Below, piece after piece: positions 1,269-48,742 of a DNA stretch of 64,000 bases; position 1 is the first letter of the stretch, and each line of letters begins with the position of its first letter. Below the pieces are notes generated by a model. That model saw nothing but the letters and a program-made list of their open reading frames with translations, was not told the origin of the DNA and made no database searches. Location of the stretch: contig DASSNE010000034.1 of NCBI GenBank assembly GCA_035688265.1, forward strand, positions 6,055 through 70,054. The letters are read 5' to 3'. The DNA is from Gammaproteobacteria bacterium. Its GTDB lineage: Bacteria > Pseudomonadota > Gammaproteobacteria > Natronospirales > DASSBR01. The position numbers and the translations under genes were made by a program.

Positions 1269-1437
1269 AAGAGCAGGAAAACCTTGGAATTCCGACAGCA
1301 GCAGGTATTATAGGCAGCCGACAAGCACGTTCCGGCGCAAACGACAAATTATACGCCGCGCGGCAGCATCGGAGAGCGTAAACGGAGGGCTGCCGCGCCG
1401 GTTTCGCGCCATGATGGCGACAGCGCCGATCGAAGCC

Positions 1438-1851
1438 GGGCCTGTAGCTCGGGGGTGAGCCGAGACCGGAATGCCAGTGGCATTCCGCAGCGGAGCCGAA
1501 CGCGAGACAGGAAGTCGAGCTGGTCACGGCACCAAGGACGGTTGAACACGACAGAAATTATTTTGGTTACAGCGGGCCTGTAGCTCAGTTGGGTGAGCCG
1601 AGACCGGGAATGCCAGTGGCATTCCGCAGCTCAGGCGAACGCGAGGCAGGAAGCCGAGCTGGTCATCGCACCACGGACGGTTGAACGCGAAAAGATTAAT
1701 TTTGGTCACAACGGGCCTGTAGCTCAGTTGGGTGAGCCCCGACCGAAATGCCAGTGGCATTTCGCAGCGGGAGCGAACGCGAGGCACGGATGCCGAGCTG
1801 GTTACGGCACCACGGACGGTTGAACGCGAAAAGATTAATTTTGGTCACAAC
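1438..1851 (+). repeat. Three tandem 136/139/139-bp units, each starting with a diverged tRNA 5' acceptor/D-arm segment followed by a conserved hairpin
   Basis: Units start at 1438, 1574 and 1713. Each begins GGGCCTGTAGCTC(A/G)..GGGTGAGCC, resembling the first ~26 nt of the tRNA at 1852. Next comes the hairpin GGAATGCC-AGT-GGCATTCC, which is GAAATGCC-AGT-GGCATTTC in unit 3 (a compensatory pair). Each unit ends ..GGACGGTTGAACGCGAAAAGATTAATTTTGGTCACAAC. Confidence 0.85.
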
Positions 1852-1929
<78 letters not shown>

Positions 1930-1985: not shown

Positions 1986-3152
1986 ATGCTAATACAGCGT
2001 CAAAAAGCTGAGGCCATCCGCGCGCGGCTGGACCAGTTCCCCGCTGTGGCCCTGCTTGGCCCGCGACAGGCCGGCAAGACAACGCTGGCCGAACAAATCG
2101 CGGAAGAGCGGCCGAGCGTTTATCTCGATCTCGAAAACCCGGCGGACCGAGAGAAGCTGAGCGACGCCCTGCTGTACCTGTCCGGACACGAAGACAAGCT
2201 CGTGATCCTGGACGAGGTCCAGCGCATGCCCGAGTTGTTTCAGACGCTCCGCGGGCTCATCGACCAAGGGCGCCGCCGTAACCGCCCCCACGGGCGGTTT
2301 CTGTTGCTGGGCTCCGCATCCATCGATCTTCTCAAGCAGTCAGGCGAAACTTTGGCCGGCCGCATTGCCTACTTGGAGCTTGGACCTTTCGACACGCTCG
2401 AAGTCGACGGCGACCAGCAGGAAAAGCTCTGGATCCGGGGCGGCTTCCCCGACAGCTTTCTGGCGGCATCTGATGAGGCCAGCGCCGTCTGGCGCGAAAA
2501 CTTTATTCGCACCTACCTGGAGCGGGATATTCCGCAACTCGGACCGCGAGTGCCGGCCGAAACGCTGCGCCGCTTCTGGACGATGCTCGCGCACATGCAG
2601 GGCGGAACGCTGAACGCGGCGCAACTCGCACGCGGCCTCGGCGTCGACGGCAAAACCATCGCCCGCTATCTCGACCTGCTGGTCGACCTGTTGCTGGTGC
2701 GGCGATTGCAGCCGTTCCACGCGAACGTGGGCAAACGGCTCGTGAAATCGCCGAAGGTTTACGTGCGCGACAGCGGCATCGTTCACGCGCTGCTGGGTCT
2801 CAATGATCGGGAAGCAGTGCTCGGCCATCCAGTCGCCGGCGGAAGCTGGGAAGGGTTCATCATAGAAAATCTGCTAAGCGCGGCGCCGGAAAGAACCCAA
2901 GCCTGCTTCTATCGCACCTCGGCCGGCGCGGAAATTGACCTGGTGCTGGACCTGCCTGGCGGCAAGCGCTGGGCTATAGAAATCAAGCGCAGCCTTGCGC
3001 CGACACTCGACAAGGGCTTCCACCATGCGCGCGCAGATCTGAAACCGGACGGCAGTTTCATCGTTTATTCAGGCGAGGAGCGCTACCAGAAAGCCGAAGG
3101 CGTCGCCGTCATCGGTTTCTCCGAACTGACTTCACTGCTTGGCGGCGCTTAG
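1986..3152 (+). CDS. AAA+ ATPase with C-terminal DUF4143-type PD-(D/E)xK nuclease-like domain
   Basis: 388 aa. It has Walker A GPRQAGKTTLA and Walker B LVILDEVQ. The C-terminal AEIDLVLD...WAIEIKRS fits the D...ExK restriction-endonuclease-fold motif typical of AAA_14/DUF4143 proteins. GC is host-like (sample line 2401-2460: 63%). Confidence 0.75.
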   Translation: MLIQRQKAEAIRARLDQFPAVALLGPRQAGKTTLAEQIAEERPSVYLDLENPADREKLSDALLYLSGHEDKLVILDEVQRMPELFQTLRGLIDQGRRRNRPHGRFLLLGSASIDLLKQSGETLAGRIAYLELGPFDTLEVDGDQQEKLWIRGGFPDSFLAASDEASAVWRENFIRTYLERDIPQLGPRVPAETLRRFWTMLAHMQGGTLNAAQLARGLGVDGKTIARYLDLLVDLLLVRRLQPFHANVGKRLVKSPKVYVRDSGIVHALLGLNDREAVLGHPVAGGSWEGFIIENLLSAAPERTQACFYRTSAGAEIDLVLDLPGGKRWAIEIKRSLAPTLDKGFHHARADLKPDGSFIVYSGEERYQKAEGVAVIGFSELTSLLGGA

Positions 3153-3495
3153 GGCACATCAGAGTAGCCTGAGATGGCTGGATATAACGCCTGCCATACA
3201 AGCGGCCGCGACAGGCGTCGGAAGTGCAAGGTCAAGCTCCGACCCCTACGCCCACATGAAGGGGGACCGCATCGGCTACGTCAACCGTGTGCAAGCACAG
3301 GCTTTCCATTACTGGCTGCGCAATATGTCCATCAATTCTTGGGTGGAGCGCCTCAATGGACGTCCCGAGCGACCTTTAGTTTATCTTTTCGTAGAAGTTC
3401 GCGCCTCCCAGCCGTTGTGGCAAGCCGCTGGCTTAGATTGACGGCCCCAGGGGCTTGGCGAAGTCGCCTGTGAAATCTTAAAACCTGCGGGTGAT

Positions 3496-5025
3496 TCAAG
3501 CTCCTTCTTCGGCGGTTTCAATAGCATGCATTTCAATCTCAAAGGGCACGCGCAGCAGCTGATCCTTTAGTAGCTTAATTGTATCCGGGTCAACCCGCCC
3601 TGCTTTTTGCCGAGCTCGCCATTCCGCGATACCGTCATAGGTGCATTCGCGCAAGTAATTCAACACTCCGTCGCTACCTTTTAGATGCGCCCAGTGCGGA
3701 TGCGCTTTGTTAATAAGTACGATTACATGGTCGGCTGCTGCGGTGTCTATCACAACATAAGGATCGTTTGTCGACAGATCGCCCTCTATATAGCCTTTGA
3801 CAGCCAAGTCGCCGATGTTAGCGCCGAATGTCGTCGGCCTGTCCACTGTAGACTTCGTTATCCGCTCGAGCGATCCTCGCACAACTTCGTAGGGAGGGAT
3901 GACCTCACTTATTTCGAGGCGATCAAGCATCTCCGGGGACTCGAGCTCCTTTCGGAACTCATCAACCGCCACATCGACGTCGCTTTGCGACGGTCCTCTT
4001 CCATCATCTGTTTCTTTCCAAGGCTTTTTAGCTATTTCTCGATAGTAACTGCAGTGCTTGTATAGCTCCTCCTCCACTCGCTCTTCTTCATCTCCGAGCC
4101 ATAAAATGTCATCCTTCGTGTGGCTTACTTCGAAAGCATCGAGATTGATTTCACCTACCAGCCGCTGATTCGTAAGGTCATTGCTGCCGTGTATCTGCCC
4201 ATACAAACTGCTTGGCCGCCAAGCATCAGGCCAGCCTCGTACAACGCGACCACAATGTAGAACTGAAAACCCCGCGTTAGCACGACTTCCTCGTTTCAGG
4301 ATCCCAACCCACCCGTCAACTTTGCTCCCGTTTACGTCGAAGGAAAAATCTTTACGATATTCATTTCCGTCTCGGTCAGCCAGCATCGGAAAGTCGACCC
4401 ACTCCAACGGTTCGTGTTGCCACTCCAGTACGAGACCATTCGACCTCAGATCCACACGGTACATCGACCGCAGATAGTCTTTTATTTTTCCAAGCGTGCG
4501 GCCTTGGAATATCCGGTTGTGCTTGCGAATTTCTAATATCGTATAATGCTTCCCCGGGTCTACGCCCTCTGTCGCCGAATAGGGCAGCGCGCCGTTTCCG
4601 CCTTTCGACACAACGTCAACGTCTATTGTTACTTGATGCTCTACGGTCTCGCCTAGCTTTTTTGTACGGACACTCCAGATGTTGCCTATCCATGAAGCGG
4701 CCGTTTTGAGACCCATACCGTATTTCGACCGTCCCGAAGTGTTTTCTGGTGGAAGACCGACGTGTAACGCCCTCTCCAGTTCTTCGTAGGACATACCCAT
4801 AGCATTGTCGAATACGCGCAGCAAGCCACCGTTATCCCGCTCATATACTATTCGAACCTCTAGGCGCTCATTCTCACGTGCCAACGCGTCATCTAATTCT
4901 TGGCGGCAGTTGAAATACGACTGAGTCGCGTTGTCCACGAATTCAGCAATAGCGTGCCATGGGCTGTAAGCAAGCCGTCGATAAGATGTAATTGAGTCTA
5001 GTCCTATCTTTAGTTCAAGTGCCAC
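3496..5025 (-). CDS. GHKL-superfamily (MORC/HATPase_c_3-like) ATPase, last gene of the four-gene R-M-like cassette
   Basis: 509 aa, GTG start preceded by a GGGGAGG SD. Bergerat-fold motifs: N-box AEFVDNAT, G1 FDNAMGM, G2 SKYGMGLKTA. The C-terminal ~300 aa has no motif I recognise. The gene is AT-richer than the flanks (line 4501-4560: 47% GC). Confidence 0.75.
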   Translation of the reverse strand: MALELKIGLDSITSYRRLAYSPWHAIAEFVDNATQSYFNCRQELDDALARENERLEVRIVYERDNGGLLRVFDNAMGMSYEELERALHVGLPPENTSGRSKYGMGLKTAASWIGNIWSVRTKKLGETVEHQVTIDVDVVSKGGNGALPYSATEGVDPGKHYTILEIRKHNRIFQGRTLGKIKDYLRSMYRVDLRSNGLVLEWQHEPLEWVDFPMLADRDGNEYRKDFSFDVNGSKVDGWVGILKRGSRANAGFSVLHCGRVVRGWPDAWRPSSLYGQIHGSNDLTNQRLVGEINLDAFEVSHTKDDILWLGDEEERVEEELYKHCSYYREIAKKPWKETDDGRGPSQSDVDVAVDEFRKELESPEMLDRLEISEVIPPYEVVRGSLERITKSTVDRPTTFGANIGDLAVKGYIEGDLSTNDPYVVIDTAAADHVIVLINKAHPHWAHLKGSDGVLNYLRECTYDGIAEWRARQKAGRVDPDTIKLLKDQLLRVPFEIEMHAIETAEEGA

Positions 5026-5043
5026 AGGGACCTCCCCAAGTAT

Positions 5044-5820
5044 TTAAGCGTCTTGAATAGAAAGTGAGTCGTCCGAGTTGCGGATCATCATGTAGCAGCG
5101 TCTAGCATCCAATGGATTTGCCCGTTCTGGTATAAGCCATACTTTGTCTTCCGCATCAAGCCTTCGCCAGTATGTCATGGCGCCAGCATATCTGATCTTT
5201 AGTATCTCGTCCGTCCTCGGAAGAATGGCAGGCGATTCGACCACCATAAATCCGGGCAGTATCTTGTCGAATAGGCAGCGCGAGATCAGTTCGGTTGGGC
5301 ACGTCGGATGATATCCGTTGACACGAAAAACCGCTCTGTTAGTCTCCGACCGAAAGATTTCCACCACTGCCATTTCGGCATCATGCTGCCGGAGGAGCGG
5401 CTCCCATTTAGGCTGTAAGCGATTCACCACCACCAATATGCGCGGTGGTGCACCCTTCAGCATCTCTTCCACTTTTGTTCTGTCTAAATAGGTGTTCTTG
5501 TCACAGAGATAGCCAGCCTCTTCCGATCCATAGCGAGCGCGGGAAAGTGTCCGTACCTGAGGTAACACGTGGCCGTTGAGCGAGTGCGTAGCTGTCTCGA
5601 CTTCAATGATCCACCAATCGCGATAATCCCGATTTATCAATGCTAAGTCAGGTTTCGCTGATGAGTCGTCCGAATAAACAGTTTTTTTGAAAGGACAAAC
5701 GTGGTATTCGGGGTAAATCGAATCGGCGTGTTGAACCAATATGCGCTCGTACTCCGACTCGTAGAGCGCCCCCGGGCAGACCTCGTCATACCACTCGTTG
5801 TTAATGAGCAGCCTGGCCAT
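5044..5820 (-). CDS. Hypothetical protein, putative PD-(D/E)xK-fold nuclease
   Basis: 258 aa. The N-terminal half has the pattern YESEYERIL...KPDLALI...WWIIEVETATH, consistent with alpha-E / PD / ExK-like restriction-endonuclease-fold elements, although the lysine position is not canonical. Its start overlaps the upstream helicase gene by 20 nt. Confidence 0.45.
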   Translation of the reverse strand: MARLLINNEWYDEVCPGALYESEYERILVQHADSIYPEYHVCPFKKTVYSDDSSAKPDLALINRDYRDWWIIEVETATHSLNGHVLPQVRTLSRARYGSEEAGYLCDKNTYLDRTKVEEMLKGAPPRILVVVNRLQPKWEPLLRQHDAEMAVVEIFRSETNRAVFRVNGYHPTCPTELISRCLFDKILPGFMVVESPAILPRTDEILKIRYAGAMTYWRRLDAEDKVWLIPERANPLDARRCYMMIRNSDDSLSIQDA

Positions 5821-7042
5821 CAGCTAATAGATCCACTTTAAGCCACTTGGATGTCGCAGTGTCCTGAAGTCTTTCTTCTTCACGCTTAAGGCGCCCACGT
5901 TCCGCATTTGTAGCGAAGACCGTGTATATGATCGCATGATCTTTGCCTGGGGCGGGACGGAGGACGCGGCCAAGGCGTTGTATTCTCTGCCGCGAGCTAC
6001 CTGACGCGCTGGCGATGATGGCAATCTGTGTTTCCGGTACGTTCATACCCTCGTCCAGCGCACGGCATGAAACGAGAACATCGAAAATGCCTCGGCGGAA
6101 GAGCCGGAGATTGTCTCTCCGGACTGGCGGGCTTATTCCAGAATGGTATAAGGTGGCTCGATGTTGTCGTGACTTCAGTATTTCGAAAATCTTTTCGGCA
6201 GCATCCACCCGCTCATGAAACACGATGATTCGGCTGCCCCTTAAGCTGTCTACAAGTTTGGCTGCGACGGGTATACGCATTGTGGCGCTAGACGCTAACC
6301 GTGCTCGGCTTATTAGGATGTTTTTTAATCGGTCCTGCAGCGGCTCGCCTTTCTCTATTTGCTTCTGAACACGAACCGCGCTGCCGGTCAGTTTTCGGTA
6401 CTCGGCATCTTCATCGGGAAGTAAGCTCACCTCAACATTAACTAATTCGAATGGGCAAATGACGCCATCTCTAAACGCATCCCGATAGTCATACGCATAA
6501 ATGATCTTTCCTAGTGCAGGCTCCACATATTGTTGAAAACCTTCATCATACTCACGAACAGGCGTTGCCGAGAGTCCTAAAGTTCCTGCAAACGAACCTT
6601 CCATCGCGCGAGCATTAACAGGGCTACCAGCTCTGTGACATTCGTCGACAATTAACAGGGTTCGCTCCTCATCTTGCGGCACATGCTTCAGATGGCGAGC
6701 AGTGTTTATCACAGCAATATTTATGATCGTGAGGGAATCCGGGTGTTCCTCACCAGAAAAGCACGATATGGAGTCAGGACTGACACCCAAATCGTCGACA
6801 AGAGATACATACCATTGATCCAGCAGCGTGAGGGTAGGAACAACAATTAGAAATCGAGCACCTTCAATGCGTTCACAAAATTTAACCATACACATCAGGG
6901 CAAAGGTTGTTTTGCCACCGCCTGTGACGACGCTCGCAACTCCGCAGTAGCCATTGCGTATCCACAGGTCTAGAGCTTCCTTTTGCCAAGTACGCGGCCG
7001 CAGCTGTAGCGACCAAGATGATGTGGCGTCGCTGTTGCTCAC
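5801..7042 (-). CDS. SF2 helicase (ResIII/XPB-RAD25-like, DECH box)
   Basis: 413 aa. Motifs: I TGGGKT, II DECH, III SAT, VI QRLGRVLR. The GTG start overlaps the methyltransferase TGA stop (GTGA at 7039-7042). Confidence 0.85.
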   Translation of the reverse strand: MSNSDATSSWSLQLRPRTWQKEALDLWIRNGYCGVASVVTGGGKTTFALMCMVKFCERIEGARFLIVVPTLTLLDQWYVSLVDDLGVSPDSISCFSGEEHPDSLTIINIAVINTARHLKHVPQDEERTLLIVDECHRAGSPVNARAMEGSFAGTLGLSATPVREYDEGFQQYVEPALGKIIYAYDYRDAFRDGVICPFELVNVEVSLLPDEDAEYRKLTGSAVRVQKQIEKGEPLQDRLKNILISRARLASSATMRIPVAAKLVDSLRGSRIIVFHERVDAAEKIFEILKSRQHRATLYHSGISPPVRRDNLRLFRRGIFDVLVSCRALDEGMNVPETQIAIIASASGSSRQRIQRLGRVLRPAPGKDHAIIYTVFATNAERGRLKREEERLQDTATSKWLKVDLLADGQAAH

Positions 7043-7965
7043 ACAAGAGCCATCTGTTCTTCAGCCAGAAACCGTCCGTAAGATCCGCTGACGTATTCTG
7101 GATTAGCCTCGATACTTAGCCATGACCGACGGAGGATTTCGGCCGCGTAACCTGTGGTGTTGCTACCCCCAAAGGGATCCAATACGACATCATCTTCATC
7201 CGTTAGGAATTTTATGAAAAACTTCGGGATCTCAAGTGGCATCCGCGCCGGATGGGTCGAAAGGCCTTGTTTGCGACAGTATTGCTGATAACTGTCGGTG
7301 GCACGCGTATTCGGCACTACCAGCACACTCGGCGAAATAGCGCCCCCATGATCTGTAAGGAATGAATGTTCGCCGATGTTGTGTTCTGACGGCCGCCGGC
7401 CGCCGTTATAGACCTTAGTCTTCAATAACCGCTTCATGCCGGCACTGTAAGGTTGTAAAACTCGCTTGTTGTCGGCCTTTGGCCTAGCTGATTTCGAGAG
7501 CCACCAAAATCTCGTGTGACTGTCTTTTAAGCGAATCCGCTCAACTGTTACCCACTGCGCCGGACCAGGCAGGCGTGCAGGATTGTGCCAGACAAGCTCT
7601 TGACACAAGTGGAAATCGCCAGCTTCTTGGAACGCAAGAAGCGATCGTAGAGGTAGAGTTGACATTGTCGGGCTGCCTTGCACCCAAGCATTGCCTAACT
7701 CAATGACAACCGAGCCTGAGTCCGCAAGCAAATCCCGAAAGACTGGTGCGAACGACGCCAACCAATTGACGTAGTCGGCACCGGTAAGGTTTCCGTACCG
7801 CTTCTTTCGATTCAACGGAAAGGGTGGCGACGTGAAAATGAGCTGGACCTTACCTTTGAGAGTCTCAAAGTACGATGACTTCAAGACTTCTTCCGACTTA
7901 CCATGAAAGAGCCGGCCCCGTGAGGTCTGATATGCTACATATTTAGGTGGACGCCCCTTAAACAT
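7039..7965 (-). CDS. Beta-class N4-cytosine/N6-adenine DNA methyltransferase
   Basis: Catalytic motif IV, IFTSPPFPL, lies near the N-terminus. AdoMet motif I, VLDPFGGSNTTG, lies near the C-terminus, giving the beta-class order. I place the start at ATG 7965 (MFKGRPPKY...). The track ORF extends to 8151 only by reading antisense through the ligD fragment. Confidence 0.8.
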   Translation of the reverse strand: MFKGRPPKYVAYQTSRGRLFHGKSEEVLKSSYFETLKGKVQLIFTSPPFPLNRKKRYGNLTGADYVNWLASFAPVFRDLLADSGSVVIELGNAWVQGSPTMSTLPLRSLLAFQEAGDFHLCQELVWHNPARLPGPAQWVTVERIRLKDSHTRFWWLSKSARPKADNKRVLQPYSAGMKRLLKTKVYNGGRRPSEHNIGEHSFLTDHGGAISPSVLVVPNTRATDSYQQYCRKQGLSTHPARMPLEIPKFFIKFLTDEDDVVLDPFGGSNTTGYAAEILRRSWLSIEANPEYVSGSYGRFLAEEQMALV

Positions 7966-8059
7966 CGATGATCGCTTTGCCGCCCCACTTAGCTTGATGC
8001 CGCATTTTACATGCCGAAGGGATCTACTGCATCTGCAATTCTGATCGGGCCGTACTAGC

Positions 8060-8136
8060 GCCGGCTGCATTTCGATCTGCGGCTGGAGGAGCACCGCGTG
8101 CTGAGGAGTTGGGCGGCGCCGAGGTGGCCGGGCCTG
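8060..8136 (+). pseudogene. 77-bp diverged fragment of the ligD phosphoesterase-domain coding sequence
   Basis: Aligned by eye to 9859-9935 of intact ligD: the first 32 nt are identical, with 7 mismatches in 77 nt overall. It would translate [25 protein letters not shown], against LigD [25 protein letters not shown]. No similarity is visible on either side of the 77 bp. Confidence 0.8.
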
Positions 8137-8152
8137 GACGCGGACAGGCAAC

Positions 8153-9547
8153 TCACCGCCAACCCAGCCGCCAAGACTGAAATTCCGACGGCCGCAACTG
8201 ATAGCGAGCGATATTCCCCTCGTGCAGGCTCATCAGTTCGGTTTCGGCAATTTCGACGAATCGCGCCCGATCCATCTCAGGCACCTCATTCCCGGCGTAG
8301 CTACGAATCAGCGCACTCGCGGCCCTCTTGTCCATTCGGCGGCTCACTACGGCCGTGACAATTTCCGCAACCTGCGCGCGGTACCGCAGCCGGAACGGGT
8401 CCGGCTCTCCCAGCGACTGCCGAATTGCAGAATAGCGGGCGGACGAGCGTTCATAAGCCCAAACGAATACGTCTCGCAACAGGTCCACGCGGTTCAGTTC
8501 GTAAACTCCCAGTATGCCCTCGATATAGGCTCGTTCGGGCATATCGACGAATGACAACGGGCACAGATTCCGGCGCACGAGCGGAATGTTTGCCGCGAGT
8601 CGTGAAACGCGCTTGTTCACGTCAGCGAACGGTTGCAGATATGGCAGGTGCACCATGGCAAAGAAGGCTTGCTCTAGCGGATCCTCGATTGCAGAAGCCT
8701 TGGTGAGCATCTGCTCAAACGATTCCTCGATCAGTTGCGGCACTGCGAGCGGGTGATAGACAGACCCACCGATTTCGACGCCGTGCGTCCGGAGCCGGCC
8801 GCCGGCTTGTGGATCGGAAAGCAGATTTTCCGACAGCAGGGCATGCAGGTTGAGGATGGTGTATCGATTGAACCCGATCTCCGCCGCCTGATCGACAAGA
8901 AGCTCAATCGCTCGCTTGTGGTTCAGGATCATCTGCGACTCGCGCGCATCTTTACCCTCGGCGGACTCGCCTAATTCCAACAGTCGTTCGGTTTCCAGCA
9001 GCGAATAAGTGTTGCCTTCCAACCGACTCGAGTTCCAGGACAGGTCGATCAGCATCCGGCTGAAAATCTGCCGGGCGTAGGTGCCGGCCGGCCTTTCACC
9101 GTCGGGCGAGCGACCGACCTCGGCAAGGTGCCGGCGGAGATCATGAGCAAGATAAAATGTGGCGTTCGGCCGATAGGCGTCGAGGAAGTCCCTGTTATAG
9201 CCAACCGGCTGGCGGGCCTGGATCGGCTGGCGGACCGCCCTTTTGGTCATCTCTCCGTCTACTGAGAGCGGGACATAAACTTCGCCCTCTTCGCGCACTT
9301 CTACGCGCCGGGCGAGCGCGCCGGCTGCATTCGCGTAGTCAGCCAGCCGATACTGGCGGCCTCGTCCCCGTCCGTCGGCGATCAGGCGATTCTGGCGGAC
9401 GAGCAGCGCCAGCCAACGCTGTAACGTTCGGCGGGGCGCTTTGGGCGCCAATGCTTGATCGATCTCCTCAAGCCTGGCTCCGTCAGGGAAGCGCGAAACC
9501 GCTGCCAGCACTGCTTCAAGTTGATCCTGGGACGTTTGTCGTGGCAT
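8153..9547 (-). CDS. Winged-helix + Fic/Doc-fold protein with degenerate active-site motif
   Basis: The N-terminus is wHTH-like (RRTLQRWLALLVRQNRL). SSRLEG fits the (S/T)xxxE(G/N) inhibitory-helix motif. The Fic core reads LQPFADVNKRVSR, against the consensus HxFx(D/E)GNGRxxR and the Doc variant HxFxD(A/G)NKR. I prefer the start at ATG 9547 (MPRQTSQ...); the track start is 9631. Confidence 0.7.
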   Translation of the reverse strand: MPRQTSQDQLEAVLAAVSRFPDGARLEEIDQALAPKAPRRTLQRWLALLVRQNRLIADGRGRGRQYRLADYANAAGALARRVEVREEGEVYVPLSVDGEMTKRAVRQPIQARQPVGYNRDFLDAYRPNATFYLAHDLRRHLAEVGRSPDGERPAGTYARQIFSRMLIDLSWNSSRLEGNTYSLLETERLLELGESAEGKDARESQMILNHKRAIELLVDQAAEIGFNRYTILNLHALLSENLLSDPQAGGRLRTHGVEIGGSVYHPLAVPQLIEESFEQMLTKASAIEDPLEQAFFAMVHLPYLQPFADVNKRVSRLAANIPLVRRNLCPLSFVDMPERAYIEGILGVYELNRVDLLRDVFVWAYERSSARYSAIRQSLGEPDPFRLRYRAQVAEIVTAVVSRRMDKRAASALIRSYAGNEVPEMDRARFVEIAETELMSLHEGNIARYQLRPSEFQSWRLGWR

Positions 9548-9550
9548 TTT

Positions 9551-9580
9551 AGTGGCGCAATAATTGTTTTGCGCGCCACT
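9551..9580. promoter_or_regulatory. Imperfect inverted repeat just upstream of the Fic-like gene start (candidate operator)
   Basis: The sequence is AGTGGCGCAA-taattgtt-TTGCGCGCCACT. The TGGCGCAA half-site recurs at ~9593-9600. It lies in the divergent Fic/ligD intergenic region. Confidence 0.35.
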
Positions 9581-9731
9581 ATACGCCAGAATCTGGCGCA
9601 ATTCCAGGTATCGCGCCAGTAAACGGCACATCAGGTCGAGAGCAGCGCTACTCGTTAATCGTGTTCCCTGCTACGATCAATAATATTCGAGCCGTCGCGC
9701 CCATATCGGCGGGTCGAACCGGAGTCCAAGG

Positions 9732-12254
9732 ATGGATAACCTCACAACATACCGCCAAAAGCGCAACTTCAAGCGCACATCGGAGCCGGCCGGCGCTGAC
9801 GGCGCTTCGCGGCCCGGCAGCGACGATCCCATTTACATCATCCACAAGCACGACGCGAGCCGGCTGCATTTCGATCTGCGGCTGGAGGAGGACGGCGTGC
9901 TGCGGAGTTGGGCGGTGCCGAAGGGGCCGAGCCTGAAGGTGGGCGAGAGGCATCTGGCCGTGGCCGTCGAGGATCATCCGTTCGAGTACAAGGATTTCGA
10001 GGGGACGATTCCCGAGAAGGAGTACGGCGGCGGGACCGTGATGCTGTGGGATCGGGGGCATTGGCGCGCGAAGAAGGAGAAGACCGGGCATATCGATTTC
10101 GAGTTGAACGGCGACAAGCTGGCCGGTTCCTGGACGTTGGTGCAGATGCAGGGCAAGGCCGGCGAGGGCGGCAAGAACTGGCTGCTGATCAAGCGCCGCG
10201 ACCGCAAGCAGACGCGCAAGCCCGCGCCGCCCGGCGATGACGATGTGAGTGTCGCCAGCGGGCGCACGATGGAGGAGATCGCGCGCGGCGCGAAGCCGAA
10301 GGCGCACGAGGAGGTGGCGGCGGAGCGCGCGGCGAAATTGAAAGGCGCACGCAAGGCCGCGCTGCCGCGCGAGCCTTCGCTGCGGCTGGCAACGCTGGGC
10401 AAGCAGGCGCCCGACGGAGACGACTGGCTGCACGAAATCAAGTTCGACGGCTACCGGCTGCTGGCGCGCCTCGACCACGGCAAAGTGCGTCTGCTGACGC
10501 GCAACGCGAAGAACTGGAGCGAGCGCTTCCCGGCGTTGGGCAAGGCGCTGGCGAAGCTCCAGGTCGACAGCGCGCTGCTCGACGGCGAGCTGGTGTCGCT
10601 GGATGCCGCCGGCGTCAGTCGCTTCGGTGCGCTGCAGGAGGCGATCAGCGAGCGGCGCACCGATGCGCTCGTCTATTTCGTCTTCGATCTGCTGTATCTC
10701 GACGGCTACGATCTCAAGAAAGTGATCCTGCGGGACCGCAAGCGGCTGCTCGCCGAGCTGCTCGGCAGTGACCCGCCCGCGCTGATCCGCTACACCGATC
10801 ACGTCGCCGGCAACGGCCCGGCATTTTTCGAGAAGGCCTGCGAAAGCGGCCTCGAAGGCATCGTCTCCAAGCGCGTCGACAGCCCCTACAGCGGCGGGCG
10901 CAGCAAGCAGTGGCGCAAGACGAAGTGCGTGAAGGATGCGGAGTTCATCGTCGGCGGCTATACGGACCCGGCCGGCTCGCGCACGGGCTTCGGCGCGCTG
11001 CTGCTGGGCGCGTATGACGACGACGGCAAGCTGGCCTACGCCGGCCGCGTGGGCACCGGCTTCTCGGACCGCCAGCTCGCGGCGCTGCACAAGACGCTCA
11101 AGGAGCTGGAGATTGGCAAACGGCCGTTCCGGGAGGCGGTGCCGGATTCGGCGGGCGTGCATTGGGTGCGCCCGACGCTGGTGGTGGATGTGACATTCAC
11201 CGAGCGCACGCGCGACGGCCGGCTGCGTCATCCCAGCTTTCGCGGGCTGCGCGAGGACCGCAACGGGGACGAGATTCGGCTGCATCCGCGACCCGCGGCG
11301 AAGCCGGCGCCGAAGCGGAGTTCAAAACGGCGAACCACAACGCGCGCCCGCGGCAAGGGCGAAGCGGTCGCCGGCGTGCGCCTCAGCAATCCGAACCGGG
11401 TGTTGTACGAACAGATGGGCATCACCAAGCTCGATCTCGCGCACTATTACGAGTCGATCGCCGACTGGATCCTGCCGCAACTCGCGGACCGGCCGCTGTC
11501 GCTGCTGCGTTGCCCTTCGGGTGCGGGCAACTGCTTTTTCCAGAAGCATCCGGGCGAGGCGCTGGTGCCGGGAATGCCGCGCATCGACATCACTGAAAAC
11601 AACGGCGACCTGCGAACTTACGTCTACGTTCACGCGCTGCCCGACCTGATCTCGCTGGTGCAGGCGGGTACGCTGGAGATTCATCCGTGGGGCAGCCGCG
11701 TCGATAACGTCGACAAGCCGGACCTGATCGTGTTCGATCTCGACCCGTCGCCGGAGGTCGGCTGGGCGGAAGTGCTGCGCGTCGCGGGGACGCTGCGCGA
11801 GCGGCTGGAGCAGCTGGGCCTGACGCCGTTTGTGCGGCTGACCGGCGGCAAGGGGCTGCACCTGGTGGTGCCGCTGCGGCGCCGCGATGGCTGGGACGAG
11901 ATCAAGGCTTTTGCGCGCGCGGTGTGCGAGGCGCATGTGCACGATGAGCCGAAGAAGCTGACCGCAACGATGTCCAAGGCGAAGCGGCGCGGGCGGATTT
12001 TCCTCGATTATCTGCGCAACGGCCGCGGAGCGACGGCGATCGCCAGTTATTCGACCCGCGCCCACCCGCATGCGCCGGTTTCGGTACCAGTTCGCTGGGA
12101 TGAACTCAGCGAATCGATACAATCGGACTATTATCGAGTCGATAACCTGCCGCAGCGGCTGGCGGCGTTGAAGGCAAATCCGTGGGCGGACTTCGAGTCG
12201 GCACGGCGGCAGATTACCAAGGCGATGCGTAAGGCTGTCGGGATGAAGACTTAG
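9732..12254 (+). CDS. ligD: ATP-dependent DNA ligase D (phosphoesterase - ligase - polymerase/primase domains)
   Basis: 840 aa. The N-terminal PE domain shows YRQKRNFKRTSEP and HFDLRLE. The ligase adenylation motif is EIKFDGYR. The C-terminal LigD polymerase domain shows LTGGKGLHLVVPL. Confidence 0.92.
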   Translation: MDNLTTYRQKRNFKRTSEPAGADGASRPGSDDPIYIIHKHDASRLHFDLRLEEDGVLRSWAVPKGPSLKVGERHLAVAVEDHPFEYKDFEGTIPEKEYGGGTVMLWDRGHWRAKKEKTGHIDFELNGDKLAGSWTLVQMQGKAGEGGKNWLLIKRRDRKQTRKPAPPGDDDVSVASGRTMEEIARGAKPKAHEEVAAERAAKLKGARKAALPREPSLRLATLGKQAPDGDDWLHEIKFDGYRLLARLDHGKVRLLTRNAKNWSERFPALGKALAKLQVDSALLDGELVSLDAAGVSRFGALQEAISERRTDALVYFVFDLLYLDGYDLKKVILRDRKRLLAELLGSDPPALIRYTDHVAGNGPAFFEKACESGLEGIVSKRVDSPYSGGRSKQWRKTKCVKDAEFIVGGYTDPAGSRTGFGALLLGAYDDDGKLAYAGRVGTGFSDRQLAALHKTLKELEIGKRPFREAVPDSAGVHWVRPTLVVDVTFTERTRDGRLRHPSFRGLREDRNGDEIRLHPRPAAKPAPKRSSKRRTTTRARGKGEAVAGVRLSNPNRVLYEQMGITKLDLAHYYESIADWILPQLADRPLSLLRCPSGAGNCFFQKHPGEALVPGMPRIDITENNGDLRTYVYVHALPDLISLVQAGTLEIHPWGSRVDNVDKPDLIVFDLDPSPEVGWAEVLRVAGTLRERLEQLGLTPFVRLTGGKGLHLVVPLRRRDGWDEIKAFARAVCEAHVHDEPKKLTATMSKAKRRGRIFLDYLRNGRGATAIASYSTRAHPHAPVSVPVRWDELSESIQSDYYRVDNLPQRLAALKANPWADFESARRQITKAMRKAVGMKT

Positions 12255-12304
12255 GAACGAATCATGAGCAATGGAATGCGCGACAAGACCGGGCGGTGGG
12301 CGCC

Positions 12305-13081
12305 ATGACCGCCCGGGCGATGTGGAAGGGCGCGATCTGCTTTGATGGCGTACGTGTGCCGGTCAAGTTCTATGCGGCGGTCGCCGATCGGGACGTGCAT
12401 TTCCGCCTGCTGCACGCCAAAGACCGGGTGCCGGTGAAGCAGGCGATGGTGAAGCCCGATTCCGGCGACATCGTGCCCTACGCCGAGGCGCGGCGGGCCT
12501 ATGTGACCGAGGAGCGCGACTGGGTAGTCCTGAACGATGAGGATCTGGCCGCCGTCGAGCCGGAGGAGTCCCGCGATGTCGAAATCCTCGAATTCCTGCC
12601 GCCGCGGGTGATCGATCACCGCTGGTATCTGCGCCCGTATTATCTCGGCCCCGACGGCGCCGACAAGGCGTACGCGGCGCTGATTGCCGGCCTCGCCAAG
12701 TCCGGCCAGGAAGGCCTCGCCCGCTGGACGATGCGCAAGCAGGAGTACGTCGGCGCGCTGCGCCTGCACGCGGGCTACCCGGTGCTGGTGTCGCTGCGCC
12801 ATGCCGGCGAGGTGATTGCGGTCGAGGAGCTGGAGGCGCCGGGCGGCCGCGAGCTCGACAAGCGCGAAATCGACATGGCGAAGCAGTTGATCGGCATGCT
12901 GGAGGCGCCGTTCGAGCCGGCCGACTACCGCAACGAGCATCGCGCCCGCATTCTCGACCTGATCGAGACCAAGCGCCGCGGCGGCAAGGCGAAGATCATT
13001 CCGTTCAAGCGCCCCAGGCCGACGCAGGATCTGTCGAAGGCGCTGGAAGCCAGCCTCAAGCGGGAGCGCAAGAGTGCTTAG
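12305..13081 (+). CDS. ku: Ku DNA end-binding protein (paralog 1)
   Basis: The N-terminus MTARAMWKGAICFDGVRVPVKFYAA is typical of bacterial Ku. ATG 12305 is preferred over the GTG at 12296. Confidence 0.88.
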   Translation: MTARAMWKGAICFDGVRVPVKFYAAVADRDVHFRLLHAKDRVPVKQAMVKPDSGDIVPYAEARRAYVTEERDWVVLNDEDLAAVEPEESRDVEILEFLPPRVIDHRWYLRPYYLGPDGADKAYAALIAGLAKSGQEGLARWTMRKQEYVGALRLHAGYPVLVSLRHAGEVIAVEELEAPGGRELDKREIDMAKQLIGMLEAPFEPADYRNEHRARILDLIETKRRGGKAKIIPFKRPRPTQDLSKALEASLKRERKSA

Positions 13082-13100
13082 GGAATTCAGTAATTCTTTT

Positions 13101-13190
13101 GTCATTCCCGCGAAGGCGGGAATCCAGTCTAATCAGTGGCGGCCTTGGGCCGCATCCATCTGACTGGGTTCCTGCCTCCGCAGGAACGAC
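13101..13190. repeat. 90-bp palindromic MITE/REP-like element, copy 1
   Basis: It has terminal hairpins (ATTCCCGC-gaag-GCGGGAAT and GTTCCTGC-ctcc-GCAGGAAC) and a central GCGGCC-ttg-GGCCGC. The two halves are reverse complements of each other. A second copy lies at 35287-35375. Confidence 0.8.
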
Positions 13191-13213
13191 GAGGAAAGCA
13201 GACAGGACATCAG

Positions 13214-14221
13214 ATGCCACGTAAACACCACGACAGCGAGCAACAGTCGCGCCGCCCCGGGCCGCGGCCGTTCTGGTCGGGCATCATCGCCTTCGGTCTC
13301 GTCAGCCTGCCGGTCAGCCTGTACGTGGCGACACGTTCCAATAAAGTGTCGCTGCGGATGGTCGACGAAGATGGCGAGCCGCTCGCGCGGCGCTATTTCT
13401 GCCCCAACGAGGAGCGCCCGCTGGAGCCCGATGAGATCGTGCGCGGCTACGAGGTCGAGAAGGACCAGTTCGTGGTGGTGAGCGACGACGAACTGGACGC
13501 GATCGCGCCGCCCAAGTCGCAGGAAATCGACCTGCGCCGCTTCGTGCCCGCGGACGACATCGACCCGATGTACTTCGAGCGTGCCTACTTCCTCGCGCCG
13601 GACAAAGGCGCAACCAAGCCCTATCGCCTGCTGGCGAAGAGCATGGAGGACACCGGCCGCGCCGGCATCGCCACCTGCGTGATTCGCGGCAAGGAGTACC
13701 TGATCGCGATCCTGTCCAGCCACGGCATCCTGCGCGCCGAAATCCTGCGTTTCGCCGACGAGCTGCGCACGCCCGACGACGTGGGCCCGCCCGAGCCGAA
13801 GAATCCGGACGCGGCGGCCGTCAAGCGCATCGAGCAGGCGATCAAGTCGAATAGCCGCAAGACCCTCGACACCGACAAAATGGCCGATGCCCGCGCCCAG
13901 CGCCTGTTGAAGCGCGTCGACGAAAAGCTCAAGGCGGGCGAGGACGTGATTCACGAGCCGGAGTATGTCGAGGACGAAGAAGAGGCGGAAGGCACCGAGC
14001 CGGTGGACCTGATGGCGGTGCTCAAGGCGAGCCTCGAACAGGAAAACGATGGGCAACGGGCGCCGAGGCGGCGCGCCGCGAAGCCGAAGCCCGGCGGCGG
14101 CCGGAGCCGGAAGGCGGGGCGCTCGCGCGAAGAACTCTACGAAGAAGCGCAAAAGCTCGATATTCCCGGCCGCAGCAAGATGACCAAGGATGAACTCGCC
14201 CGCGCCATCCGCCACCACTAG
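13214..14221 (+). CDS. ku: Ku DNA end-binding protein (paralog 2) with basic tail and Rho_N/SAP-like C-terminal motif
   Basis: Ku core: RPFWSGIIAFGLVSLPVSLYVA. The C-terminus is Lys/Arg-rich and ends in ELYEEAQKLDIPGRSKMTKDELARAI, a Rho-N-type helix-extended-helix pattern. I place the start at ATG 13214; the track start at 13136 reads through the repeat element. Confidence 0.85.
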   Translation: MPRKHHDSEQQSRRPGPRPFWSGIIAFGLVSLPVSLYVATRSNKVSLRMVDEDGEPLARRYFCPNEERPLEPDEIVRGYEVEKDQFVVVSDDELDAIAPPKSQEIDLRRFVPADDIDPMYFERAYFLAPDKGATKPYRLLAKSMEDTGRAGIATCVIRGKEYLIAILSSHGILRAEILRFADELRTPDDVGPPEPKNPDAAAVKRIEQAIKSNSRKTLDTDKMADARAQRLLKRVDEKLKAGEDVIHEPEYVEDEEEAEGTEPVDLMAVLKASLEQENDGQRAPRRRAAKPKPGGGRSRKAGRSREELYEEAQKLDIPGRSKMTKDELARAIRHH

Positions 14222-14303
14222 CGGTCCCCAGCGGCGGTTAGGGTCATCCCTAGACCGCATTTCCCCCAGACCTTGCTACAATCGAATCCATTTTTGCAGA
14301 GAT

Positions 14304-15944
14304 ATGCGCCCATTGGAGTCGGAAACAGCAATCTCGCCGCAACGGGAGCGCGCGGCAAATCCACCGTCCGCGGACATCCTCGTCGTCGACGACAACAAGC
14401 CGAACCTCGCCGCCATCGAGGTGGCGCTCGGCGACATGGGCCGGCACCTGGTCAAGGCGGAATCCGGTCAGGCGGCCCTGCGCGAACTGCTGACCCGTGA
14501 CTTTGCGCTGATCATCCTCGACGTACAAATGCCGGGCATGGACGGCTTCGAGACCGCGCGACTGATTCGCAACCGCAAGCGCACCCGGCACGTACCGATC
14601 ATCTTCGTCACCGCCTACACCCGCAACGACGCCGAAATCCTCAAGGGCTACCGCCTCGGCGCGGTCGACTTCATGTTCAAGCCGATCGTCCCCGAGGTGC
14701 TGCGCGCCAAGGCGCGCGTCTTTGTCGAACTGCAGGAGCGCACCGCCGAGGTGCAGCACCAGGCCCAGCGCCTGCGCGAGCTGGAGCGCCGCGAGAGCCT
14801 GCGCCAGATCGCGATCGAGCGCGAACGCTGGAAGGCGGAAACGGCACGGCGCGAAAACCGGCAGAAAGATGAGTTTCTCGCCGTGCTCGCGCACGAGTTG
14901 CGCAATCCGCTGTCGCCGATCGTCACCGGCATCCAGCTGCTGGAAACCTACGGCAAGGACAACGCCGGCGTGTGTCGCGTGCGCGGCATGATGGATCGCC
15001 AGGCGCGCCACCTGATGCGGCTGATCGACGACCTGCTCGACGTGGCACGCATTACCAGCGGCAAGATCAACGTCGAGATCGGCCGGGTGAATCTGGCCGA
15101 GGCCGCCGAACAGGCCGCCGACAGTGTCGCCGAACTGATTGCCGAGAAGCACCACACGCTTACCGTGACGCCACCGGACGAGGCGCTGACGGTGGCGGCC
15201 GACCCGGTGCGCCTGACGCAGATCATCGCCAATCTGCTGAACAATGCCGCGCGCTACACCGACGACGGCGGCAAGATCGAGTTGACTTGGCTGCGCGACG
15301 GCGACGAAGCGCTGATCCGCGTCAGCGACAACGGCCAGGGGATTTCGCCCGAAATGCTGGAGCGCATCTTTGAGCAGTTCGTGCAGGAAGACAGCCGCGG
15401 CCGCGGGCTGGGCCTGGGCCTCGCGCTGGTGCAGCGGCTGGTGGCCATGCACGGCGGGCGCGTACGCGCGGCCAGCGACGGCCACGGTCGCGGCAGCGAA
15501 TTCAGCGTCTGGATTCCGCTGGCGGAGCCGGCCGTGGCGGAAGACGGTGCCGTGTCGCCGGCAGCGGCCACCGGAAAGTGTGCGCCGCTGAACATCGTGC
15601 TGGTCGAGGACGAGGCGGACATCCGCGACAGCATTCAGGCGCTGCTCGAAGATTGGGGACACCACGTCGACACCGCCGCCGACGGCAGCGACGGCGCCAT
15701 GCTGATCGCGCGGTGCAAGCCCGACGTGGCGATTGTCGATATCGCAATGCCCGGGCTTGACGGCTACGCAGTGGCGCGCCAGGTGCGCCGCGATCCGGGC
15801 GGCGAGCGCATCCGGCTGATCGCGATGACCGGCTTCGGCCGCGACCACGACCGCCGCCGCGCACTGCAGGCTGGATTCGACCAGCATCTGACCAAGCCGG
15901 CACGGCCGGAAGAATTACAACAGGCGTTAATCGCCCATAACTGA
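14304..15944 (+). CDS. Hybrid sensor histidine kinase/response regulator (REC - coiled coil - HisKA - HATPase - REC)
   Basis: N-terminal REC: [10 protein letters not shown]...[11 protein letters not shown]-box: [14 protein letters not shown]. HATPase: DNGQGI and [10 protein letters not shown]-terminal REC: [10 protein letters not shown]...[10 protein letters not shown]...LTKP. The start is set at ATG 14304, after the ku stop. Confidence 0.88.
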
Positions 15945-15954: not shown

Positions 15955-21666
<5,712 letters not shown>

Positions 21667-41310: not shown

Positions 41311-41319
41311 GTCGCCATC

Positions 41320-43286: not shown

Positions 43287-43306
43287 TTTAGGGGGAGTCT
43301 CGATTC

Positions 43307-46278: not shown

Positions 46279-46323
46279 TCCGCCTGCCGAACGTCGCCAG
46301 GGACAGGACTGGGGGAGACAATA

Positions 46324-47498: not shown

Positions 47499-47547
47499 CC
47501 ATTTGTCCGGAAAAACAAACCGTTGCCGCAAAGACCGCTGAAAAAGC

Positions 47548-47576
47548 TTGACATATGGTAGTCAGTCTAGTATTTA
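47548..47576 (+). promoter_or_regulatory. Sigma70-type promoter for the pilin genes
   Basis: TTGACA (47548-47553), a 17-nt spacer, then TATTTA (47571-47576). It lies ~125 nt upstream of the pilin ATG at 47702. Confidence 0.5.
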
Positions 47577-48154: not shown

Positions 48155-48167
48155 TAACTTGCGACTG

Positions 48168-48701: not shown

Positions 48702-48742
48702 TAGCAAGGGTAGCAGGCGGTGAGCCGTCAAGGTGCGAAGGT

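Follow-up and report, generated by a model that had tools for sequence, protein, structure and literature searches.

Tandem composites of tRNA 5′ fragments and a dispersed structured element upstream of a tRNA gene in a gammaproteobacterial genome

A tandem array abutting a tRNA gene

The analysed window, a 64,000-nucleotide stretch of contig DASSNE010000034.1 (assembly GCA_035688265.1, Gammaproteobacteria bacterium), contains a tRNA gene with the anticodon CAT at 1852–1929. The gene is directly abutted by a tandem array at 1438–1851, in whose units the truncated start of a tRNA is joined to a copy of a dispersed structured element, here named E. A ClC chloride channel gene lies to the left of the array, and its closest relatives in the databases come from soil metagenome-assembled genomes (MAGs) of uncultured "Gammaproteobacteria bacterium". 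Tandem Repeats Finder reported a single array at 1437–1872 (period, 139; 3.2 copies; 88% matches; score, 656) and, together with ARAGORN and Rfam, confirmed the three tandem units beside the tRNA that a preliminary description of this sequence had recorded. The length of about 139 bp given there holds for units 2 and 3, whereas unit 1, in which the D-loop sequence has decayed (CTCGGGGG), measures 136 bp, and a fourth, degenerate copy (E0) precedes them. Each unit consists of 17–19 nt of the tRNA 5′ end, reaching to the GG of the D-loop, about 88 nt of E, and a 3′ extension of 32 nt, the last nucleotide of which is tRNA position −1 (Table 1). In shuffled versions of the window, the tRNA-5′-like 26-mer and the hairpin segment were each expected 0.00 times. 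In a local alignment with unit 3, E0 scored 23, a value reached by 10 of 500 shuffles, and the equivalent region of the related locus L001 scored 34 (0 of 500 shuffles as high). At the related locus L018, the position orthologous to E0 is occupied by a well-preserved copy of E.

As had been proposed, the units are not tRNA genes: neither a tRNA cloverleaf nor any other family was called inside 1438–1851 by ARAGORN or Rfam (E-value ≤ 10). They had been described as opening with an acceptor strand and a complete D-arm, which is right for the part derived from the tRNA but not for the closing GTGAGC. The D-arm is a chimera to which the tRNA contributes only GGGCCTGTAGCTCAGTTGG. GTGAGC is the 5′ end of E and is also found at sites without a tRNA; the start of E (GGGTGAGC) resembles the tRNA's own GGTAGAGC. 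Compared with its fragments and with the tRNA of L018, the intact tRNA has since gained one C in its D-loop and carries C in place of T6, and the D-loop of the L018 tRNA (CAGTTGG↓TTAGAGC; arrows mark junctions with E or the equivalent position) is exactly the sequence retained in the fragments. ARAGORN assigned the gene to Met, the name used below; its CAT anticodon, combined with the acceptor-stem pairs C4-G69/C5-G68, presumably indicates tRNA-Ile2 (lysidine-modified), not elongator Met.

Table 1. Features of the array and of the tRNA gene beside it, in window coordinates (P1–P3, helices of E)
Feature	Position	Strand	Remarks
Sigma-70-like promoter, candidate native tRNA promoter	1284–1311	+	TTGGAA-16-TATTAT; consensus scan; upstream of the whole array
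E0, old, degenerate, 5′-truncated copy	~1353–1437	+	Without GTGAG, P1, P2, or a tRNA fragment to its left; local alignment
tRNA 5′ fragment 1	1438–1454	+	+1 to D-loop GG; decayed to CTCGGGG
Element copy 1	1455–1541	+	Core GTGAG...CTGG 1455–1523; tail GGA hairpin 1524–1541 (ACC-AAGGAC-GGT); P1 degraded; P2 1468–1486; P3 loop CAGGAAG
3′ extension 1	1542–1573	+	TTGAACACGACAGAAATTATTTTGGTTACAGC; ends at −1 of the next tRNA fragment
tRNA 5′ fragment 2	1574–1592	+	GGGCCTGTAGCTCAGTTGG
Element copy 2	1593–1680	+	Core 1593–1662 (P1 GCCGAG/CTC-A-GGC; P2 1607–1625); tail hairpin 1663–1680
3′ extension 2	1681–1712	+	32/32 identical to extension 3
tRNA 5′ fragment 3	1713–1731	+	
Element copy 3	1732–1819	+	Core 1732–1801 (P1 GCCCCG/CGGG-A-GC; P2 1745–1763); tail hairpin 1802–1819; P3 loop ACGGAU
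3′ extension 3	1820–1851	+	Abuts tRNA +1
Intact tRNA, anticodon CAT	1852–1929	+	Met by ARAGORN, could be tRNA-Ile2; Rfam RF00005, 72.1 bits

A dispersed family with a conserved secondary structure

A scan of one genome per species with AATGCCAGTGGCATTNCGCAGC as the query identified eight loci in five MAGs, and a metagenome scan with the tail segment added one further E locus. A covariance model (R1) was built from 16 copies of E and detected 21 full-length copies at E-values ≤ 1e-11, with matches outside the seed in L008 (at 1857, 2061, and 2164), L018, and L017. Across the 64-kb window, it matched the three array copies only, which are themselves among its seed sequences (72.4 bits at 1453–1525, 78.8 bits at 1591–1664, and 82 bits at 1730–1803; model positions 1–75).

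The 5′ boundary of E is exact, GTGAG always following straight after GG (GG↓GTGAG). In order, E comprises GTGAG, a helix P1 enclosing P2, a conserved CGAACG, a helix P3 with an ANGGAN loop, and CUGG; a long form carries an extra, second ANGGAN hairpin and ends in ...GGAYGG. The 3′ end is ill-defined and can take flanking sequence along. P1 and the enclosed P2 form an irregular long hairpin. P2, with the apex GCC-AGU-GGC, is the hairpin of the preliminary description; its strands are GGAATGCC/GGCATTCC in units 1 and 2 and GAAATGCC/GGCATTTC in unit 3, and both the hairpin and its two-sided change were as described there. Variants included a mini copy in L016, in which a GAAA loop stands in for P2 and closes P1, a copy in L012 that a nested insertion splits after the P2 loop, and a 5′-truncated copy in L010. 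A match in L009, from a beta-proteobacterium, was a partial palindrome within a coding sequence and not a copy of E.

In the model-guided alignment of the 21 copies, standard base pairs occupied 93.3% of the cells, compared with 78.9% in shuffles and 30–44% with slid partners, and two-sided changes occurred at 16 of the 22 pairs; none of 500 shuffles reached the observed values, the counts being taken from an alignment fitted to the model itself. RNAalifold recovered P1, P2, and P3 independently. The two-sided change in P2 is one of several variants (GAAAUGCC, GGAAUGCC, GAAGUGCC, and GAUCGUCC), each accompanied by a matching 3′ strand. The GAAATGCC form is the commoner in the family: of 19 distinct copies, 16 have A-U at that position, and because it is the majority form, units 1 and 2, and not unit 3, probably carry the derived state of P2. 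Folding of single units yielded weak z-scores (−0.9 to −2.3) and inconsistent global folds, in which the hairpins alone recurred.

When consensus E was compared by BLAST with plasmid records, it matched a 508-kb replicon of the cultured Xanthomonas sacchari strain R1, on which four tandem copies (NZ_CP010410.1, 11,700–12,120; 21–43 bits with the covariance model) directly follow an ABC-permease gene. The known members of the family thus come from several uncultured gammaproteobacteria of soil and from X. sacchari. In the first 50 kb of this replicon, the scan found the four-copy array only, and no tRNA. The units of the window had no match in the plasmid collection, the tRNA-5′-like 26-mer and the hairpin segment had no exact match among the viral contigs, and consensus E had none in the phage collection.

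No Rfam family matched E, either in the units (E-value ≤ 10) or in seven related loci (E-value ≤ 1), where only tRNAs and chance matches were returned. As the preliminary description had supposed, no element of this architecture is described in Rfam or in the literature that we found, and E is well supported as an uncatalogued structured element in its family, structure, and insertion signature. The units had also been considered as possible members of a structured-RNA family with a tRNA-like start. A conserved structured element that covaries over 21 copies is indeed present, whereas the tRNA-like start does not characterise the family: because this start changes with the locus and is absent from copies at non-tRNA sites, the units are not RNAs beginning like a tRNA 5′ half. 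Free variation in copies without covariation had been named as evidence against such a family; the copy number, from 0 to 3 units, and the content of the units do vary freely, yet covariation is present.

Insertion sites and junctions

Copies of E were found beside the genes for tRNA-Met, tRNA-Arg(CCT), tRNA-Pro(TGG), tRNA-Lys(CTT), tRNA-Thr(CGT), and tRNA-Trp(CCA), with a fragment of the local tRNA before them and the intact gene after them, and also at non-tRNA sites, often right after a stop codon; both tandem and nested arrangements occurred. The fragments end in the D-loop GG at tRNA-Met, -Arg, -Lys, and -Thr, in the anticodon loop at tRNA-Pro (...TTTGGG↓), and in the anticodon stem at tRNA-Trp (...GCGG↓), and in one reverse-oriented case the fragment end is the complement of the tRNA-Lys 3′ end (...CAGGG↓). 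The direct repeats at tRNA sites end exactly at GG↓GTGAG (39/40 in L011 and 59/59 at tRNA-Pro in L010); those at tRNA-Lys in L010 are identical at 28 of 34 positions at the 5′ site and at 85 of 91 at the 3′ site. No direct repeat flanks the non-tRNA copies, and the flanking repeats of E copies measure either 0 nt or 24–91 nt. The GG is common to the element and the target and therefore serves as microhomology. Two nested insertions show that the loops of E itself act as targets: in L015 (2040–2176), a variant whose P2 covaries fully (GATCGTCC/GGACGATC) splits an E copy after the GG of that copy's P3 loop, and in L012 (1260–1357), the break in E follows the GG of the P2 loop.

The tRNA sites share one architecture, namely the native flank, a 5′-truncated E, n repetitions of a GG-ending fragment followed by a full E, and the intact tRNA; since the arrangement ends in an intact tRNA, the gene survives every event. 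The left-most copies are truncated at differing points. E0 in the window and the copy at 3518–3577 in L010 begin at CAGC just past P2, the copy in L018 begins at P2, and that in L011 retains its last 18 nt only.

A truncated tRNA copy in direct repeat with an intact tRNA, lying next to a block with low GC content at third codon positions (GC3) that resembles a defence island (1986–9631), recalls the attachment-site (att) scars of an integrase-driven integrative element or prophage, an identification on which the preliminary description would have abandoned its own proposal. Such an origin is extremely improbable and already contradicted. The duplicated end is the 5′, not the 3′, end of the tRNA, there is no integrase domain in 1986–9631, and the tRNA 3′ end occurs once in the 64 kb. 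Moreover, the repeats are separated by only about 120 nt, the same element accompanies six different tRNAs, and the searches of viral contigs and the phage collection described above gave no match.

Two arrangements in the MAG MFD02416 were recorded in passing. A second abundant repeat (...CATCGCGCCGAGGGCGGCGCTCCCACAGG...), which forms tandem arrays of its own with a period of about 60–90 nt, is interleaved with E copies in L008 (750–1330) and L013 (3540–3900). In L008, two small reverse-strand open reading frames (1330–1855) lie between two E arrays, one of which starts right at the start codon of the first.

A filled and an empty site, and the history of the array

A filled and an empty version of one site were obtained for tRNA-Arg. 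Locus L011 contains tRNA-Ala, a terminator, a tRNA-Arg fragment, E, and the intact tRNA-Arg, whereas L023 contains the two tRNA genes and the terminator but no element, and the covariance model gave no match there. The S6 proteins of the two loci share 99% identity where they align, and the identity of the flanking DNA is about 90% (by reading). Their alignment revealed a single 153-nt insertion exactly between positions −1 and +1 of tRNA-Arg, composed of an 18-nt segment, x (GGTTACTATTGTCACCAC), a 19-nt tRNA-Arg fragment, 98 nt of E, and x again. Because x occurs in the insertion and is missing from the empty site, it is not native flank, and L023 is not the product of recombination between repeats, since such recombination would leave one x. 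The S6 orthologues L024 and L025 are without the tRNA-Ala/Arg pair.

The tRNA-Met locus differs among relatives. In the window, a degenerate partial copy and three units precede the tRNA; in L001/L014 (ClC, 97% to the window), a degenerate partial copy and one unit; in L018 (ClC, 95%), one E copy (52 bits) without a tRNA fragment, that is, 0 units; and in the more distant L012, two units, the older of which is broken by the nested insertion. In L007 (ClC, 100%; another sample), the contig ends within the first unit, which differs from unit 1 of the window. These differences (0–3 units) therefore indicate a rapid turnover of unit number and content. The distant ClC orthologues L003–L006 and L019–L022 showed neither synteny with the tRNA nor E.

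Within the window, units 2 and 3 agree at 60/71 positions of the core, 15/18 of the tail hairpin, 32/32 of the 3′ extension, and 19/19 of the tRNA fragment, and units 1 and 2 agree at 64/70, 15/18, 26/33, and 16/19, respectively. In their element parts, units 2 and 3 thus show 14 differences over 89 aligned positions, some of them compensatory changes in P1, P2, and P3, compared with 0 in the other 51 nt; the chance of this split is about 0.001 by a rough estimate. Purely local tandem duplication upstream of the tRNA, caused by slippage or by unequal crossing-over and involving no mobile element, would produce a head-to-tail repeat with 88% matches and, as unequal crossing-over predicts, a unit number that differs among relatives. 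As the sole explanation, however, it is very improbable and already contradicted by the uneven differences between units 2 and 3, by the recurrence of the 75-nt core in other genomes, both beside five further tRNA species and away from tRNA genes, and by the empty tRNA-Arg site of a close relative. Unequal recombination almost certainly contributes to the gain and loss of units. The scars of repeated recombination that the preliminary description had envisaged are therefore upheld as repeated recombination or insertion at the tRNA 5′ side, and not as purely local duplication. On the simplest reading, the array would have arisen by separate, successive events, with the oldest leftmost (E0, then units 1, 2, and 3). 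The last event would have introduced a different lineage of E, like that of the single unit in L001, and unequal crossing-over between the repeats would then have gained and lost units.

The 3′ extension, a proposed leader, and a possible regulatory role

The AT-rich end of each unit had been proposed to hold a promoter. The sigma-70 consensus scan found none inside the units, where TTGAAC and TAATTT lie just 10 nt apart, and it found no promoter-like or terminator-like site on the + strand of 1438–1851; one promoter-like site lies upstream, at 1284–1311. The relatives L001 and L018 share the hexamers of this site, and the equivalent position in L012 reads TTGGGC-18-TATACT, directly before the first tRNA fragment. 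The proposed link between tail and promoter was nevertheless partly right with regard to origin. The tRNA-Met extension resembles the native promoter/leader region with z = 3.9 in L012 and z = 1.6–2.4 in the window, a weak-to-moderate indication that the AT-rich tail may be, at most, a diverged copy of that region. The copy at tRNA-Trp has a tail (TTGAACGGGACAGAG...) that matches the tRNA-Met extension (z = 4.0–4.6), and E copies therefore move the extension between loci. The segment x showed a weak likeness to tRNA-Met leaders (z = 2.1) and none to the native tRNA-Arg flank (z = −1).

Since no promoter or terminator was found inside the array on the + strand and a conserved promoter-like site lies upstream, co-transcription of the array with the tRNA is plausible. 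Transcription from 1284–1311 would yield a long tRNA 5′ leader, to be freed by RNase P, and this leader RNA would hold six GGA-loop hairpins.

The ANGGAN loop is a classical CsrA/RsmA site, and the loop CAGGAAG in the window corresponds to the repeat motif of CsrB. The array, as an RNA derived from the tRNA leader, may therefore be useful to its host in regulation: its GGA-loop hairpins would bind a CsrA/RsmA-type protein as a sponge or would bring neighbouring genes under Csr control. This proposal concerns function and is compatible with any origin. The P3 stem is closed by an ANGGAN loop in 20 of 21 copies, and the second hairpin of the long form, about 26 nt downstream, has a covarying stem (ACC/GGT, GGC/GCC, GCC/GGC). 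All six GGA motifs of the array lie on the + strand, with 0 on the reverse strand. Copies of E occupy 3′ untranslated positions directly after stop codons, and weak Rfam matches to TwoAYGGAY and RsmW both belong to the Csr/Rsm clan CL00106. We nonetheless consider a regulatory role unlikely: the Rfam scores are far below threshold (19 vs 43 bits), the GGA count does not exceed that of shuffles (6 vs 3.5 ± 1.7), and P1 and P2 play no part in it. In Xanthomonas, only one RsmA-sequestering small RNA, RsmU, has been reported (PMC7694677); its primer sequences bear no resemblance to E, and it was rejected as a member of the family.

Proposed mechanism of spread

From the family and its conserved structure, the exact junctions, the one filled and empty pair, and the turnover among relatives, we conclude that the units are probably composites (tRNA start, E, and extension) generated by repeated, gene-sparing copy-and-paste events through template switching at the tRNA. 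In such an event, a nascent strand would copy E to its 5′ end and run off, re-prime on an end in ...GG-3′, and copy back into the target, the intermediate being either RNA or single-stranded DNA. The exact 5′ junction at GG, the variable 3′ end, the truncation of the left-most copies, the retention of the tRNA, and the insertion polymorphism all fit this course of events.

Several observations weigh against this interpretation. No transposase, reverse transcriptase (RT), or integrase is encoded in the 64-kb window, and no mobilising enzyme was found there. The boundary between the 3′ end of E itself and duplicated native flank is not fixable, only one clean filled and empty pair was obtained, and the GGA count is unremarkable, as stated above. 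Most of the sequences are MAG or metagenome contigs, in which repeats may be mis-assembled, although independent assemblies agree. The evidence concerning the intermediate is conflicting. The tRNA-Met extension resembles the promoter region (z = 1.6–3.9), and no less than 75 nt of the native flank downstream is part of the repeat at the tRNA-Lys 3′ site; these duplications would fit DNA-level duplication better than an RNA intermediate, whereas the −1/+1 junction at tRNA-Arg would fit RNA ends better. The stems show no strand asymmetry between G-U pairs and A-C mismatches, and because both are rare (G-U in 2 of 419 cells, and A-C about equally so), they do not reveal which of the two, RNA or DNA, is folded.

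A more specific version of template-switch copy-and-paste, which we regard as a tentative possibility, is an RNA-mediated spread resembling that of short interspersed nuclear elements (SINEs): E would be transcribed as part of a tRNA 5′ leader whose 3′ end is set by RNase P, an RT would copy it and jump from end to end among leader RNA, tRNA 5′ fragments ending in GG, and full tRNAs, and the 5′-truncated, concatemeric cDNA would be inserted at the tRNA. The internal junctions in L011 all coincide with RNA ends, x ending like a leader at −1 and the fragment beginning at +1; the insertion lies exactly at −1/+1 relative to the empty site, and the observed 3′ end is exactly the one that RNase P release would give a leader. 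The likenesses of x and of the tRNA-Trp tail to sequences of the tRNA-Met locus, given above, point the same way, as do the differing 5′ truncations of the left-most copies (E0, L010, x in L011, and L018), the GG microhomology at the 5′ junction, the co-orientation of 9 of 11 contexts with the flanking tRNA or gene (by reading), and the fit of one E hairpin to the TwoAYGGAY consensus. On the other side, the window encodes no RT and none was noticed in the fetched loci, which had no systematic search; promoter or terminator DNA, which should lie outside a processed RNA, seems to be part of the duplications at tRNA-Met and at the tRNA-Lys 3′ site; and we know of no precedent for a bacterial target-primed retroelement of the kind lacking long terminal repeats (non-LTR). 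Bolder still, and doubtful, is the proposal that E is a bacterial SINE-like retroelement residing in tRNA 5′ leaders, with RNase P setting its 3′ end and an RT acting in trans. The strong tRNA promoter would then transcribe E, the RT would jump onto tRNA fragments and tRNAs ending in ...GG, and the concatemeric cDNA would be pasted precisely at +1, so that the essential gene would never be lost; the two ANGGAN hairpins might be the protein-recognition module for the RT or for a CsrA-like protein.

Alternatively, E could be moved by DNA transposition, in the manner of palindrome-associated transposable elements (PATEs) of the IS200/IS605 type or of repetitive extragenic palindromic (REP) sequences and their RAYT transposases. 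Insertion would then take place in single-stranded DNA, 3′ of GG, and would leave no target duplication; the tRNA fragments would have arisen as secondary duplications, with survival limited to insertions that happen to restore the tRNA. The non-tRNA copies, which lack target duplications, accord with this model, and so do the absence of terminal inverted repeats, the hairpins near both ends, the stems that are nearly all Watson–Crick, as DNA hairpins would be, and the position of E after GG together with its end in GG, which would allow head-to-tail arrays. However, the two end hairpins are dissimilar, P1 and P3 covary freely, unlike the sequence-specific recognition of the TnpA type, and the variable 3′ end takes flank along. 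The L011 insertion would require three steps, compared with one under the concatemer model, and no HUH transposase gene was seen in the window. We therefore judge DNA transposition to be improbable.

Two further schemes were tried and rejected. Insertion of E upstream followed by duplication through the homology of GGGTGAGC and GGTAGAGC is possible for the window but fails for L011 and L012, where elements and fragments are equal in number. A composite transposon of E, flank, and fragment entering the D-loop GG fails for L011, in which the extra 18-nt x lies between the native flank and the first fragment.

Neighbouring genes in the window

The stretch from the tRNA to the beginning of the downstream ATPase gene contains a long inverted repeat (CATCCTTGCAATTATGGC...GCCATAATTGCAAGGATG; 1942–1992), which is kept in L012, carries promoter-like hexamers on both strands, and gave only chance miRNA matches in Rfam. 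The low-GC3 block directly after the tRNA (1986–9631), which contains no integrase and does not repeat the 3′ end of the tRNA, codes for a DUF4143/AAA ATPase (PADLOC PDC-S01), whose exact product is not on record in the database, a HATPase_c_3 protein, an unknown 258-aa protein, a PbeA-like helicase, a type II N6/N4 methyltransferase, and a Fic protein (SoFic/PDC-S04). A complete nonhomologous end-joining set follows at 9732–14221, with LigD (phosphoesterase, ligase, and primase-polymerase domains) and then two Ku genes, and this set may be relevant to microhomology-mediated insertions in the source genome. A hybrid kinase (14190–15944) precedes a 1903-aa hybrid histidine kinase (15955–21666) with about seven HAMP repeats, a GAF domain, and two receiver domains. 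Farther downstream, the region at 39268–54256 encodes a secretin, an AAA ATPase, a T2SS-E/MshE ATPase, and a GspH-like pseudopilin cluster (MSHA-type pilus or similar to type II secretion), and then a 1170-aa DUF6701 protein.

Significance

Small non-coding repeats are common in bacteria, but to our knowledge none behaves as E does, with directional insertion at GG, association with at least six tRNA genes, and an intact gene always lying beside a truncated copy of its own start. An RNA intermediate, if confirmed, would make E a rare bacterial counterpart of SINEs and target-primed retrotransposition and would represent a new route of tRNA-locus evolution. If its hairpins bind CsrA/RsmA, copies of E would act as portable modules connecting genes and tRNA leaders to the Csr/Rsm network, for which antagonist RNAs are poorly known in the Xanthomonas lineage. 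The arrays also explain puzzling "tRNA pseudogene fragments" upstream of tRNAs and breaks in assemblies, such as that of L007, which ends inside an array. The presence of E in the cultured X. sacchari strain R1 makes experiments feasible.

Comparison with known systems

E resembles tRNA-targeting integrative elements in its tRNA target, the intact gene, and the truncated copy present as a direct repeat. Those elements, however, are kilobases long, encode an integrase, use one fixed tRNA segment, and usually replace the 3′ part of the gene, whereas E is about 120 nt long and without an integrase, and the duplicated fragment is a 5′ fragment that matches the local tRNA. Miniature inverted-repeat transposable elements are likewise small, non-coding, multi-copy, and polymorphic in insertion; unlike them, E has ends (GGGTGAGCC and ...GCTGGGG or ...GGAYGG) that are not complementary, and it generates no short target duplication of fixed length.

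REP sequences, their bacterial interspersed mosaic elements (BIMEs), and REP doublets forming hairpins (REPINs) are short, GC-rich, hairpin-forming intergenic repeats that occur in mosaic or tandem arrays, often just past stop codons, as E does. As read, E differs from them in having no GTAG head or inverted doublets and in having three freely covarying helices, the directional GG↓GTGAG junction, and duplicated tRNA fragments. With the PATEs of IS200/IS605, E shares the lack of inverted ends, the sub-terminal hairpins, and insertion 3′ of a short sequence, and its non-tRNA insertions lie after GG without duplication, as those of PATEs do at ordinary sites. In contrast to PATEs, E has dissimilar, covarying end hairpins and a variable 3′ end, and the window yielded no TnpA gene.

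The sponge RNAs CsrB, RsmY, and RsmZ are also built of repeated stem-loops with GGA in the loop, and a spacing of about 26 nt between two such sites would suit a CsrA dimer. Unlike these single-locus genes with a regulated promoter and terminator, E is a dispersed multi-copy module, and no family of Rfam clan CL00106 reached its threshold on E. Within the TwoAYGGAY family (RF01731), the best match was one hairpin of a Xanthomonas copy (19 bits, compared with a gathering threshold of 43; 22 of 168 model positions), and the window units gave no match at E-value ≤ 10 and remained below that threshold. The motif, reported from gamma-proteobacteria (Weinberg et al. 2010, PMC2864571), is defined by AYGGAY terminal loops, and the long form of E carries two hairpins whose loops read ANGGAN. 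In Rfam, the consensus of the hairpin, gccCggaCAuGGAUGuccGggc, is nearly that of P3 in the Xanthomonas/MFD-type copies (GCCCGGCCAUGGAUGGCCGGGC), and the loops of the window, AGGAA or ACGGAU and AAGGAC or ACGGAC, fit AYGGAY in part. E differs in its additional P1/P2 domain, and its dispersal, tRNA association, and duplicated tRNA fragments do not appear in the Rfam description of TwoAYGGAY, as far as it was checked.

SINEs and other non-LTR elements, and the tRNA chimeras of the Neurospora Mauriceville retroplasmid, are small, structured, non-autonomous units characterised, as E is, by one exact and one variable end, 5′ truncations, and the involvement of tRNAs. Unlike SINEs and non-LTR elements, E is bacterial and has no A-rich tail, and some of its duplicated segments look like untranscribed DNA. 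It nevertheless has in common with SINEs, non-LTR elements, and the Mauriceville chimeras the carry-over of 3′ flank, target duplications that are variable or absent, and junctions located at RNA termini.

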